NCBI RefSeq assembly: GCF_018977255.1 | Contig: NW_024704743.1 | Span: forward strand, 4,156,001 to 4,220,000 | Direction of reading: 5' to 3' | Length of the DNA: 64,000 nt | From: Callorhinchus milii | Lineage: Eukaryota | Part shown: positions 4,301-58,678 of the stretch, in pieces | How positions within the stretch are numbered: the first letter of the stretch is position 1 | Layout: each line of letters opens with the position of its first letter | Program-made: the position numbers and the translations under genes | The notes under the pieces: model-generated | Told to the model about the DNA's origin: nothing | Databases searched by the model: none | The model's input: only the letters and a program-made list of their open reading frames with translations

Positions 4301-4415
4301 GAGTTTGCTGATGCAGTTTTCCGGCTGGTCACAGAGAAATTCAGAGATCTGACAGACAATTTCACCTCCTCACACGCGCGGCATAAAGTACTGGCAGGAA
4401 TTGTAATGACCAGAG
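4301..4415 (+). CDS. ADARB2: ADARB2 coding exon (115 nt): [38 protein letters not shown](G)
   Basis: Acceptor tgtctttcag|GAG, donor AGAG|gtaaga; matches the start of the ADAR deaminase domain. Confidence 0.95.
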
Positions 4416-9780: not shown

Positions 9781-10288
9781 GAAGGGAATAGAAGAGGTAT
9801 AGGCTCCGGTGTTTCGAGGCACTACCCAAGGCGAAGGGCGCTGTATAAATGTGCGTCGTCGTTGTTGTATAGGAAAGGGCAATGGGAGGGGTGGAGAATT
9901 TGGTGTGGGGTATAAACACTTGCATGGACTTGTTGATTGAAATAAATGGCTTTTGCAAAAAAATATATAAAACCGTAAAAAAACCTGATGGCTCAAATAC
10001 TCCGTGGAAAAACTCACTCACCCTTCGGGGAAGCGAGTTCGTCCTGTGTGGATGCTCTCACCGACTCACTCGGCTCAGATTAGAAACAGCGCTCTCTGAT
10101 TACGATAAATGATGATATGATAGCTGTTATTATGCGGGCGGGAGAATAGTCCTGGAGGAGAAGGCAGAAGCTGGTATACAACAACAATAACTTGCATTAC
10201 TTGTGGAGTCCTGTAGTGTTAGTGCGTTCACCTCGCAAGCGAGAGGACTCGGGTTCAGTGTCTCCACTTCCTTTTTAAATGTCATTTT

Positions 10289-10605
10289 GGAGTCCTGTAG
10301 CTCAGTGGTTAGAGCACTCGCTTTGCAAGTGAGAGACCTGAGTTCAATTCCAGGCAGAGGGCGAAACCTTGGGCAAGTTTCCTTACTCCACACGTCTAAT
10401 AATAATCCCTCCCAAACCAAAACAATAATAAATTGGTCATTTTCAATCTACGACTGTTTGTGGGACATTGCTGTGCGCAATTGGCTGCCGCGTTCGCCCA
10501 CTCACTTTACAGTGTGTTCTGTGAAGCGCTTTGGGACGTCCTCCCGACGTGAAAAGCGCTATATCAAATGCAAGGATTATTATTATTATTATTATTATTA
10601 TTATT
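10289..10605 (+). mobile_element. tRNA-headed SINE (short variant), full length
   Basis: ggagtcctgtagctcagtggttagagc (A box), B box, body and (TTA)n tail. Confidence 0.92.
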
Positions 10606-10962
10606 TCATAAAATGCAGCGGAGTCCTGTCGAGTATTGGTTCGGTGCACTCGCCTCGCAAGCGAGAGGACCCGGGTTCCATTCCCGGACCGGGCAGATCA
10701 CGTTCTGGGGGTAATAATCCCTTAAAATAATAATAATAATAATAATAATAATTTGGTCACTCAATCCACGGCTGTTTGTTGGTCACTGCGGTGTGCAATC
10801 GGCTGCCGCGCTTCACCCACAATATACAGAGTCAATTCGCATCACAGAATGCGCTGCGAAGCCTTCTGAGACGTCGCGACGACTTGATAAGGCGCTAAAT
10901 CAAATGCCAGGATCGTTTATTTGTTAACATTAAAATCTCTTTTCTCCCGTTTCTTCTCTCAG

Positions 10963-11131
10963 GTCCAAACGTAAAGGAAGCCCAGGTGGTGGCGCTATCG
11001 ACGGGGACAAAGTGTTTGAGCGGAGAGCACATTAGTGACCAGGGGCTGACGCTCAACGATTGCCACGCGGAAGTGGTGACGCGGAGATCTTTCCTGCGGT
11101 TCCTCTACTCTCAGCTGGAGCTCCATCTAAG
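10963..11131 (+). CDS. ADARB2: ADARB2 coding exon (169 nt) with catalytic CHAE motif: [56 protein letters not shown](S)
   Basis: Polypyrimidine tract + ag at 10961-10962, donor AG|gtaagc; CHAE codons at 11061-11072; GTKC motif. Confidence 0.96.
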
Positions 11132-11315
11132 GTAAGCCGGGTACCCATAAGTCGTCCTCGCTCAGGAACGTTGTCTTGTCTCTGCCCGATAGCCTCATCA
11201 GGAGATCAGCCTGGCTCGTTCGCCTGCGAGTCGGAGGATGTGGTTTCCAAGCTCCAGTGCAGTGCTGGGGTTGTTCGTTGCCTTTGTGAAGGTCCTACCC
11301 TTCAGATGAGATGTT

Positions 11316-11638
11316 ATAATAATAATAATAATCCTTGCATTTGATATAGAGCTTTTCACGTCTTCTCGACGTCTCAAAGCGCTTCACAGAATATACTGTA
11401 AAGTGAATTGACTGTATATTTGTGGGCGAACGCGGCAGCCAATTGCGCACAGCAGTGTCCCACAAACAGTCGTGGATTGAAAATGACCAATTTATTATTG
11501 TTTTTGGTTTTGGAGGGATTATTATTAGGCTCTGTGTGGAGTAAGGAAACTTGCCCAAGGTTTCGCCCTCTGCCGGGAATTGAACTCAGGTCTCTCACTT
11601 GCAAAGCGAGTGGTCTAACCACTGAGCTACAGGACTCC
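11316..11638 (-). mobile_element. tRNA-headed SINE (short variant), full length, nested inside an older Deu-type SINE (~11215-11900, +)
   Basis: Reverse complement nearly identical to 10289-10605; the flanks continue an older SINE (cagatgagatgtt | aggtctcgtctgtctgttc). Confidence 0.92.
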
Positions 11639-12520
11639 ACCTGTAGCTCCAAGGTCTCGTCTGTCTGTTCAAGTAAAGGCTAAGGATTCCTTGGCACTGT
11701 TCAAAAAAAAGAGAAGCATGTTTCTCGCAGTATTCTGGCCAACGTTCCCCCCACCCACCACCTCTAAAATGACCTTTCACTTCATGGACATCGCTCTGCG
11801 CAGATTGGCTTTTGTGTTTGTCTACAAATACACAGAAGTACGCTGTAAATTGCTTTGAGACATCTCGAAGACATCATAAGGTCAAACGCAAGGATTATTA
11901 TTTGTTTAACCTTAGGCAGCAGACCAAAAATGAGCAGATGTCTTCAAAGATCGTGGCTATAGAGCGTTCTTCATAGTATCCCTCCAAATGTCACTGATAT
12001 TTTGGGGGGAGAAATTCCACCCGGCTCTAGATTTAATCCACGTATGTGGCGTTTTGGAGAGTCGAGAATTTGGGCAAATTTTTGAATGCATCCTTAATAT
12101 TGAAGCCAAATTTTGATGTGATCAATCTAGTCTACCTCAGATAAACTTGGTCATTCACTTCATGGATGTTTCTGTGACACTGATACGCACAATTTGGCTA
12201 CCACATTCACCTACGAAATACACTGTCGGTACCCTTTACAATACATCCAGTGAAACTTGTTGAGACATCCTTCTGATGTGAATGGCGCTGCATCAAATGC
12301 AAGGATTATCATTATTATTGCCCATCCAATTTAAAAGATTTCCTCAAAACAGCCATACTATCATCTAAGAACTCTGAATCCTTTTGACTTCCAAAAACAC
12401 GTTATCTGGTTCCTTCCTTGAAACGGTTTAGACTATTTCCACAGATCAGCACAGAGTTGGCAGTGAGAGGGCATAAATTAAAGATAATCACAATTATAAC
12501 AAGGACCACTTCTGTTTATA

Positions 12521-12889
12521 CAATAATAATCCTTGCATTTGATATAGCGCCTCATCGCATCATCGAGACGCCTCAAAGCGCTTCACGGAATATACTGTAA
12601 CGTGAATTGACTGTATATTTTGTGGGCGAAACGCGGCAGACGATTGCGCACAGCAGCGTCCCCACAAACAGCGGTGGATTGATTGACCAAATTATTATTT
12701 TTTGAAGGGATTATTACCCCCGGAAAAGCGATCCCGCCAATTGACTAACAACCGGGTTCCTACTTACTGCTCGGGAAACAGGCGTGTGGAGTAAGGAAAC
12801 TTGCCCTAACGTTTCACCCTCCCCAGGAATCTAACTCAGGTCATTTCACTTGCGAGGCGGGTGCTCTAACCACTGAGCTGCAGGACTCC
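12521..12889 (-). mobile_element. tRNA-headed SINE (long variant), full length
   Basis: Head, middle segment (agtaagtaggaacccggttgttagtc), body, tail. Confidence 0.9.
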
Positions 12890-16652: not shown

Positions 16653-16970
16653 GGTCCTGTAGCTCAGTGGTTAGAGCGCTCGCCTCGCAAGCGAGAGACC
16701 TGGGTTCGATTCCCGGGCAGGGCGAAACGTTGGACAAGTTTCCTTGTTCCACAAACCTGATAATAATCCCTCAAGAAAAGAAAACAATAATAAATTGGTC
16801 ACTTCAATCCACGGCTGTTTGTGGGGACTCTGCTGTGTGCAATTGGCTGCCGCATTTTGCCCACAAAATATACAGTCAATTCACTTTACAGTATATCCTG
16901 TGAAGCGCTTTGAGATGTCTCTAAGACGTGATAAGCCACTATATCAAATGGAAGGATTATTATTATTATC
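16653..16970 (+). mobile_element. tRNA-headed SINE (short variant)
   Basis: Intact A/B boxes, body, (TTA)n tail. Confidence 0.9.
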
Positions 16971-21337: not shown

Positions 21338-21489
21338 TAAAAGGCCGGAAGACTGGGAGCGATCGGTCTTCGCTCGTCGCAAGGACGGGGGCTACAGGCT
21401 GAAAGAGAACATCGTTTTCCACCTGTACGTCAACACACCTCCGTGCGGGGACGCCCGCCTGAACTCTCACCGCGAGGCAAGAGCTGAGC
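21338..21489 (+). CDS. ADARB2: ADARB2 coding exon (152 nt): [51 protein letters not shown](L)
   Basis: Acceptor ctctttccgcag|T, donor C|gtaagt; Zn-ligand PCGD at 21441-21452. Confidence 0.95.
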
Positions 21490-21958: not shown

Positions 21959-22127
21959 TGCACGACGGCAAGCCAGTGAACAGGAAACCGCGCGGGCATC
22001 TGAGGACCAAGATCGAATCCGGGGAAGGAACGATTCCAATCCGCTCCCGCAATGGTGTCCAGACATGGGATGGAGTTTTACAGGGGGCCCAACTGCTCAC
22101 CATGTCCTGCACGGACAAAATTAACAG
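21959..22127 (+). CDS. ADARB2: ADARB2 coding exon (169 nt): [56 protein letters not shown](R)
   Basis: T-rich tract + cag acceptor, donor AG|gtaaaa; base-flipping loop GEG at 22021-22029; third Zn ligand Cys at 22108-22110. Confidence 0.96.
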
Positions 22128-38460: not shown

Positions 38461-38476
38461 AGCTTTACAGAGCAGA

Positions 38477-38770
38477 ACCTTAGGCAAGTCTCCTTACCTC
38501 CACACGCCTCTGTTTACCTGGGAGTAAGTAGGAACCAGTTGTCAGTCGATTGGCGGATCGTTTTCCGGAGATAATAATCCCTTCAAAAAAAATAATAATA
38601 ACAATTTGGTCACTCAATCCGTGACTGTTTGTGGGGACGCTACTGTGCGCAATTGGCTGCCGCGTTTCGCCCACAAAATATACAGTCGATTCACTTTACA
38701 GCAAATTCTGTGAAATGCTTTGAGACGTCTAAAAGACGTGATAAGGCGCTATATCAAATGCAAGGATTAA
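38477..38770 (+). mobile_element. tRNA-headed SINE, head truncated
   Basis: Middle segment, body and tail. Confidence 0.87.
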
Positions 38771-39271
38771 AATACACAGGCGTTACCTTTTATAGTGTGT
38801 CCAGGGTGCTGCATATTTTGCAGGGGAACTGCAGAATCGAGGGGTGGGGGGGGGAGGGGAGGAGTTGCTCCTGACCTGAAAAGTGCTATATTAACTGCAA
38901 GGACTATACAGTCCCTGGGCAAAGTTATCAGTTGTAAGACCTTACCAGTTTAGGGTAAGGTGAAGGATTCAGAGTAATTTTGCATAGTTTATTCAGGTTC
39001 TGTCCTCGGGCAATTCAGCTGCGAGTTCATGACAGAATAACAAATGTGTTGTAGGTTTGGGGACCGCCGTGGGGTGGGGGCTTGGGGATTTGGGGAGGGT
39101 GTGTGTCTCTGGTGCACTTTGTGCTACACTCAGGATAACAGGATGATGTTCACCACAGCTACACAACCCACCTCCTGGTCATCCACGTGGCACGAATCAG
39201 GAATGATACCGGGAATAATGGCTTGCCAGCCGAGAAGGTGAACCAGTAAACGTATTGAAGTGTTTGTGATG

Positions 39272-39655
39272 ATAATAATAATAATAATAATAATACTTGC
39301 ATTTGATATAGCGCCTTATCACGTCTTCGAGACGTCTCTAAGCGCTTCACACTGTGAAGTGAATCGACTGTATATTTTGTGGGCAAAACGCGGCAGCCAA
39401 TTGCGCGCAGCAGCGTCCCCGCAAACAGCCGTGGATTGAAGTGATCAATTTATTATTATTATTATTTTTTTGAAGGAATTATTTCCCCCGGAAAAGCGAT
39501 CCGCTAATCGACTAACAGCCGGGTTCCTACTTACTGCCGGGTAAACAGAGGCGTGTGGAGTAAGGAAACTTGCCCAACGTTTCGCCCTGCCCGGGAATCG
39601 AACCCGGGTCCTCTCGCTTGCGAGGCGAGTGCTCTAACCACTGAGCTACAGGACT
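39272..39655 (-). mobile_element. tRNA-headed SINE (long variant), full length, near consensus
   Basis: All segments present; inverted relative to 38477-38770. Confidence 0.92.
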
Positions 39656-41425: not shown

Positions 41426-41607
41426 GTGGAACGTGCTGGGCGTGCAAGGATCGCTCCTCAGTCATTTCATCGAACCCGTCTACCTGCACAGCATCGTCCT
41501 GGGGAGCGTCCTCCACTTTGGCCACCTTTCCCGCGTGGTGTGCCAGCGGATAGAAGCTGTCGGCCGGCTCCCGCCGCCCTACAGACACAACCGGCCTCTC
41601 CTCAGCG
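41426..41607 (+). CDS. ADARB2: ADARB2 coding exon (182 nt): [61 protein letters not shown](G)
   Basis: Acceptor ctcgtttcag|G, donor G|gtgcgt; frame continuous with neighbouring exons. Confidence 0.94.
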
Positions 41608-47732: not shown

Positions 47733-47911
47733 GGATCACGAGTTCCGGGGCTCGTCAGCCTGGCAAGTCCCCCAGCGTCAGCATCAACTGGACGCTGGGC
47801 GACTCCGACCTGGAGGTTATCAACGCCACCACGGGAAAGGGGGCCTTGGGATGTTCGTCCAGACTCTGCAAACGCGCACTTTATAGCCGATGGGCAAAGC
47901 TTTATGGCAAG
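47733..47911 (+). CDS. ADARB2: ADARB2 coding exon (179 nt): GITSSGARQPGKSPSVSINWTLGDSDLEVINATTGKGALGCSSRLCKRALYSRWAKLYGK
   Basis: Acceptor attcccgcag|GG, donor AAG|gtaaga; ARQPGK, NW and SRLCK motifs of ADARs. Confidence 0.95.
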
Positions 47912-58501: not shown

Positions 58502-58678
58502 CTGAGCACACGGCCTTCGAACCATCGGGGGATTCCGTCCTTGTATTGCGAAGCGAAACTGGCAGCGGAAAGCCACCAAGCTGTCAAACAACAGCTGTTT
58601 AAGGCATTGCAGAAAGCCGGCCTGGGCACGTGGGTGAGGAAGCCACCAGAGCAGGATTATTTCCTGTTGGCTTTGTAA
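58502..58678 (+). CDS. ADARB2: ADARB2 last coding exon (177 nt incl. TAA): [58 protein letters not shown]
   Basis: Acceptor ctcctccgcag|CTG; C-terminal W..KP.EQ ADAR motif; stop TAA at 58676-58678. Confidence 0.95.

Follow-up and report, generated by a model that had tools for sequence, protein, structure and literature searches.

The closest described counterparts of the locus considered here are inverted repeats that lie close together in one pre-mRNA. Such neighbouring repeats are the standard substrate of metazoan A-to-I hyper-editing, and in elephant-shark brain 81% of 200,171 hyper-edited sites fall in repeats (PMC5625713). In human genes, inverted Alus are enriched around skippable exons, the stability and editing of the pairs are tied to skipping only where the exon has a weak acceptor, and minimum free energy (MFE) differs little between skippable and constitutive exons (10.1101/2025.03.07.642063). 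As for circular RNAs, circularisation is more efficient for longer than for short exons and is poorly predicted by stability (PMC4201285). Within the ADAR family, mammalian ADAR2 edits its own transcript in a feedback that shifts splicing (PMC8304401), and ADAR3 competes for dsRNA (PMC9418441). In Callorhinchus milii, the SINEs in question would be the CmiSINEs (SINE2-1_CM and SINE2B-1_CM), which are mobilised by L2-2_CM, specific to holocephalans and reported absent from sharks and skates (PMC5499810).

Here we consider two inverted SINEs, A and B, on either side of the ADAR3 exon that encodes the CHAE motif, found in a stretch of 64,000 nucleotides of C. milii (the window). A preliminary description proposed that these near-identical copies loop out the exon as an ADAR-sensitive autoregulatory switch. 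The locus shares with inverted Alu pairs (TBXT-type skipping, circRNA) two inverted SINEs of about 300 nt, less than 500 nt from an exon, and a stable predicted stem; it differs in that the SINE is not an Alu, the host is a chimaera, the acceptor is strong and the exon is short and single. The geometry of inverted Alus is thereby exemplified outside mammals, and the locus offers a tidy natural test case for the effect of a 290-bp SINE stem on a strong exon in a cartilaginous fish. Among the papers listed on ADARB2/ADAR3 circRNA, ADAR3 evolution and elephant-shark editing, none reports the locus in its title or abstract opening.

The reading that we hold to be very probable is that A and B are two independent, recent insertions of a young SINE, predicted to pair and to be edited as bystanders, around an exon that is canonically spliced in the contigs examined. 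Both copies belong to a common subfamily, come from different sub-lineages of it and share no rare variants, and the exon's junctions are canonical. Points against this reading include the rarity of the arrangement for any single exon and an A-B duplex that is predicted to beat every competitor.

The CHAE exon of ADAR3 and its flanking repeats

The exon has 169 nt, with an AG acceptor and a GT donor, and runs from phase 1 to phase 2. It encodes STGTK and CHAE, and its translation, which ends in LELHL, is 100% identical to part of the Callorhinchus protein P0002, whose source name is editase B2 (ADARB2/ADAR3). The best matches after P0002 are ADARB2 proteins of shark, ray, teleost and coelacanth. 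P0002 has an arginine-rich N-terminal R-domain, two dsRBDs and a deaminase domain (sequence, alignment A2; PF02137). Seven of its exons lie in the window (Table 1) and the earlier ones upstream on contig C2, while a separate ADAR2-like gene (47-75% identity) is found on contig C6. With ADARB2 as the closest protein, complete identity to P0002 and a distinct ADAR2-like gene in the same genome, the original assignment to ADAR3 stands. An additional ADAR2-like dsRBD exon, outside the genes on C2 and C6, occurs on a small contig (C268:7571-8462; L063, L070) and is 56-57% identical to P0002.

Table 1. Features of the ADAR3 gene and nearby SINEs, in window positions
Feature	Positions	Strand	Remarks
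Upstream ADAR3 exon	4301-4415	+	continues into 10963 in X1-X3 contigs
SINE A, young, tRNA-Ala head, likely CmiSINE	10289-10605	+	youngest sub-lineage, (ATT)n tail
SINE C, older copy of same SINE family as A and B	10620-10925	+	possible but weaker pairing partner of B
ADAR3 (ADARB2) deaminase-domain exon with CHAE	10963-11131	+	strong pyrimidine tract, donor AAG/GTAAGC
SINE B, young subfamily, inverted relative to A	11316-11638	-	earlier-branching sub-lineage than A
SINE D, older inverted copy	12522-12889	-	second-best predicted partner for A and C
Downstream ADAR3 exon	21338-21489	+	follows directly on 11131 in X1-X3 contigs
P0002 exon	21959-22127		
P0002 exon	41426-41607		
P0002 exon	47733-47911		
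P0002 exon	58502-58678		

A and B are indeed inverted copies of one SINE with the boundaries originally given, and they flank the exon at 358 nt upstream and 185 nt downstream (about 360 and 185 had been claimed). The preliminary description lacked SINE C, which sits between A and the exon and ends about 38 nt before the acceptor. Just 5' of A, a truncated old SINE head is visible by eye at 10205-10259; it makes, together with A and C, three same-strand SINE heads in a row. ARAGORN calls a tRNA-Ala at 10292-10362 (A) and at 10623-10695 (C). It makes no call in the head of B, but that head differs from A's at only 2 of 105 nt. The tRNA-Ala-derived head contains the A and B boxes of Pol III promoters, as judged by eye against the consensus.

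The family is abundant, with 103 matches of at least 80 nt in 200 kb, in line with the 302,861 CmiSINE and 218,294 tail-sharing SacSINE1-CM copies published for this species (PMC5499810). Given species, head, size and abundance, the family is likely CmiSINE. Like CmiSINEs, A and B come from C. milii and have a tRNA-Ala head, a length of about 300 nt, a microsatellite tail and a very high copy number; the match to the published family is one of description (PMC5499810).

How unusual is it for an exon to be bracketed in this way? In 20 evenly spaced 10-kb stretches, an inverted match of at least 100 nt within 1.5 kb brackets 9.3% of 136,620 positions, and by the same weak measure 22.5% of the window is bracketed. 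A pair as strong as A-B brackets none of the 136,620 positions. No strong bracketing pair is found at the other six exons in the window, at 24 other loci from the ADAR search (2 of which have weak brackets) or at the homologous CHAE exon of ADAR2 (L071). Among young copies of the subfamily, strong neighbours in convergent orientation, no more than about 1.5 kb away, are present at 2 of 60 loci sampled by position and 4 of 58 picked by similarity (6/118), which extrapolates to about 456 strong convergent pairs genome-wide (95% interval 169-963). The genome thus contains some hundreds of strong inverted pairs of young SINEs, of which A and B form one. Coding exons number on the order of 200,000; assuming this figure and gaps of 700 nt, chance alone would bracket as many as some tens of exons. 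The A-B arrangement is therefore unusual for a given exon and expected in a genome scan, and this per-exon rarity is the main point left in favour of the preliminary description. Between the arms of eight other pairs (six strong convergent, one shorter and one divergent), a search of low sensitivity found no Pfam match in 88 frames of at least 35 aa.

The window also holds a second, fairly strong convergent SINE pair at 38468-39589 (85%, 307 nt). It lies in the intron that precedes the 41426 exon, and no mapped exon separates its arms. Across the 118 loci, close inverted young pairs are tail-to-tail in seven cases (L003, L008, L015, L034, L118, L145, L152) and head-to-head in one (L004; p = 0.07); an orientation bias is possible.

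Predicted pairing and splicing of the exon

In the MFE fold (-775 kcal/mol), A is paired with B. The ensemble of 10150-12000 has 287 expected A-B pairs versus 0.5 C-B pairs at equilibrium, with a longest stack of 79 bp, and so rejects C as the main partner of B. Predicted pairwise gains are -367 (A-B), -247 (A-D), -170 (C-D) and -150 (C-B) kcal/mol. The duplex of about 300 bp that had been proposed to loop out the exon is thus recovered on folding, at about 290 predicted A-B pairs. Equilibrium pairing of this kind is, as modelled, what any two young inverted copies would give. Masking of the splice sites by the stem is not predicted, as they lie in the loop.

Because stems of this type are a standard ADAR substrate, and hyper-editing in the brain of this species falls mostly in repeats, editing of the two arms is likely but unremarkable. 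A and B have in common with the repeats described for metazoan hyper-editing that they are neighbours, inverted and in one pre-mRNA; they differ in that their editing is only predicted (PMC5625713). In the proposed course of events, the partner LINE, an L2, would have retrotransposed A and B independently, some time in the past 10 million years or so, and the two would have landed to the left and right of the CHAE exon, one inverted relative to the other. The A-B duplex would then form in vivo in the ADAR3 pre-mRNA, and ADAR1/ADAR2 would A-to-I edit its arms as bystanders. Skipping or circles would arise in trace amounts at most, the skipped form being removed by NMD, and no selected function would be served.

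A reading that we consider unlikely, if less so than those discussed further below, accepts the accidental insertions and holds that the duplex causes substantial skipping (with NMD) or circularisation, which would lower ADAR3 output in this lineage with neither feedback nor selection. The strong and dominant predicted duplex, the splice sites in its loop, arms that both lie less than 400 nt from the exon and the enrichment of inverted Alus at skippable human exons (10.1101/2025.03.07.642063) all argue for it. Skipping would, as originally claimed, shift the frame and bring in a stop at 21400, which lies 87 nt ahead of the next junction. The skipped form is therefore predicted to undergo NMD and would in turn be hard to see. 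Against this stand the splice sites themselves. The acceptor tract has 19 pyrimidines in 20 positions, the highest among the seven window exons (by simple count, not MaxEntScan), and the donor is near-consensus; in this the exon differs from the weak-acceptor class most affected in human (10.1101/2025.03.07.642063). Short exons, moreover, circularise worse than long ones, and stability does not predict circles (PMC4201285).

The contigs examined point the same way. Four of 12 listed runs were compared over 10930-11312: X1 (study P1), X2 and X3 (study P2), and X4. Spliced contigs of X1-X3, presumed to derive from RNA, cover only the exon of this stretch and run on to the 4415 exon before it and the 21338 exon behind it; their missing intronic cover carries no weight as evidence. 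Single contigs of X1 (depth 21) pass through both junctions, and contigs of X3 pass through each junction at a depth of 91-110. The junctions of the CHAE exon in X1-X3 are canonical only, and no back-splice joint is listed in these contigs; contigs drop rare forms, and NMD would remove the skipped form, so that rare skipping or circles may have escaped notice. X4 covers the stretch as DNA.

Some smaller observations concern the exon and its surroundings. Between the exon and B, the intron in X4 carries one substitution and one single-base insertion relative to the window (11173 and 11269). Contigs of X3 break exactly around 11006, where a Gly codon has its third position; a balanced synonymous variant would produce such a break. 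A rolling-circle reading frame for a circularised exon was considered and rejected, since the longest open stretch is 80 codons.

ADAR3 catalytic residues and the question of feedback

Whether the arrangement could serve feedback depends in part on the protein that the transcript encodes. Human ADAR3 has been activated by A389V, V485I, E527Q, Q549R and Q733D, and gives no signal without Q549R (PMC6846710). At the reactivating positions of that study, P0002 keeps two of the four ADAR2-type residues in the alignment, namely Val (V351) and Asp (D695), and carries the ADAR3-type Val (I446) and Gln (R510) at the others; this Gln contributes to the inactivity of the human enzyme (PMC6846710). The ADAR3 of C. 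milii is, judging from these residues, probably a poor deaminase, and self-editing feedback of the ADAR2 kind is therefore unlikely. Feedback through the binding of ADAR3 to the duplex is conceivable (PMC9418441). The likeness to ADAR2 self-editing is that an ADAR-family transcript could be turned to unproductive splicing through RNA structure; the difference is that in ADAR2 the edit made by an active enzyme creates an acceptor, whereas here the gene is ADAR3 and the structure a recent SINE pair (PMC8304401).

On this background, we regard as very improbable the idea of a selected, ADAR-sensitive autoregulatory switch, in which editing or ADAR3 binding would open or shield the duplex and so tune inclusion of the CHAE exon. 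In its favour, the geometry is uncommon and found at an ADAR gene, ADAR2 self-editing is a precedent (PMC8304401), ADAR3 competes for dsRNA (PMC9418441) and C. milii ADAR3 has the two ADAR2-type residues just named. On the other hand, the arms are not homogenised, and a private 15-nt deletion in A near 10501 opens a bulge. The arms are also young, and sharks and skates reportedly lack their family (PMC5499810), so a switch built from them could not be shared with those groups. A Gln stands at the R510 position, where a human ADAR3 quadruple mutant lacking Q549R gave no signal (PMC6846710), and the junctions in contigs are canonical only. A regulatory switch is, in sum, unsupported. We give an equally slim chance to a newborn, transposon-built loop, in which two SINEs no more than a few million years old would supply a 290-bp stem that is opened by ADAR1/2 editing and shielded by ADAR3, so that ADAR3, which acts as a brake on editing, would limit its own output via frameshifting skips and NMD. 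Were feedback of this kind at work, an inhibitor of RNA editing would be under the control of an autoregulatory loop of transposon origin.

The residues merit a note of their own. At the positions of V351, I446, R510 and D695 (alignment A2; exons beginning at 4301, 21338, 21959 and 58502), P0002 has V, V, Q and D; proteins of shark, ray and coelacanth (P0003, P0004, P0007, P0012, P0015) have V, I, Q and D; and in the teleost proteins P0010 and P0011 the first position is G or A, followed by I and R, with D missing from the last. Since ADAR3 lineages seem to have lost different residues, the ancestral ADAR3 may have been active. We found no literature on the phylogeny of the ADAR3 deaminase in cartilaginous fish, and these lineage-specific active-site residues may deserve more attention than the SINE pair.

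Kinship of the two SINEs

The resemblance of A and B had been taken as a sign of local gene conversion or of selection for pairing. Its starting points are sound: exactly 2 positions separate the arms in their first 105 nt, and the five variants listed as shared are all missing from the window copies at 16653, 32940 and 42037. The term near-identical does not extend to the rest of the element, since the body has 15 substitutions and 3 gaps, one of them the 15-nt deletion private to A; BLAST identity is 89.5%, and 94.8% of aligned columns are identical. The 3' tails belong to different sub-lineages, each of which is shared with copies on other contigs.

More important is the comparison with the rest of the genome. 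Exact matches in the genome to a 35-nt marker that A and B both carry number 17,940 (8,950 + 8,990), compared to 0 for the reversed control. For a sample by position, we took 60 of the first 61 marker matches listed on contig C1 (two adjacent matches share L112); 57 of these 60 copies are full length and give 1,596 pairs. The five variants occur in 35, 45, 30, 50 and 53 of the 57, and in 44-55 of 58 copies picked by similarity. They define, that is, a common genome-wide subfamily, which is the first half of what the preliminary description had named as refuting it, and for this reason conversion or selection for pairing is unsupported. The accessible text of PMC5499810 makes no mention of a young subfamily of about 18,000 copies or of its sub-lineages.

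Divergence between A and B is 5.2%, against a median of 2.6% among the 1,596 random subfamily pairs, and 89% of these pairs are as close as A-B or closer. Even in the 105-nt head, 58% of random pairs have at most 2 differences. The two arms are thus less alike than most random copies. Of the 57 copies, 54 are nearer to A than B is, and 19 are nearer to B than A is; among the similarity-picked copies, the nearest ones elsewhere lie 1-2 substitutions from A and 5-6 from B. A genome search with the first 132 nt of A returned 39 other copies at 97-99%, with B not among the 40 scored; B as query yielded 39 further copies of full length at 96-98%, with A not among the matches listed. In a tree of 74 rows, A is nested in the youngest sub-lineage and B lies near the base of the subfamily, with starred branches between them. 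A clade of A and B appears in 0 of 200 bootstrap trees (the bootstrap is not fully settled, and SINE trees are star-like). The expectation that the two would be each other's nearest neighbours in a genome-wide alignment therefore fails: they are neither sisters nor reciprocal nearest. No alignment column has A and B in the same state with that state in under half of the 57 copies; gap-rich columns (about 109-113 and 141) are misaligned and were left out.

Homogenisation by local gene conversion, or birth by local inverted duplication, is accordingly rejected as barely credible, as is selected homogeneity: the 2 head differences and a mutual closeness greater than that to other window copies speak for homogenisation, but a head this similar occurs in 58% of random pairs, the tails are of different sub-lineages present on other contigs, and A and B share no rare variant and are never sisters. 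From the sequences, a conversion tract long enough to include a diagnostic site is refuted, and a very short, invisible one could have occurred.

The terminal branches of A and B are 0.004-0.005 long, compared to a median of 0.011. Taking 1-2 changes and the published rate of 1.0-1.1e-3 per site per million years (PMC5499810), the insertions would be, as a rough estimate, a few to about 10 million years old. Elsewhere in the sample, the SINE copies at L107 (C1:39057-42457) and L110 (C1:65527-68927), 26 kb apart, are identical, which suggests that a segment close to the beginning of C1 was duplicated locally.
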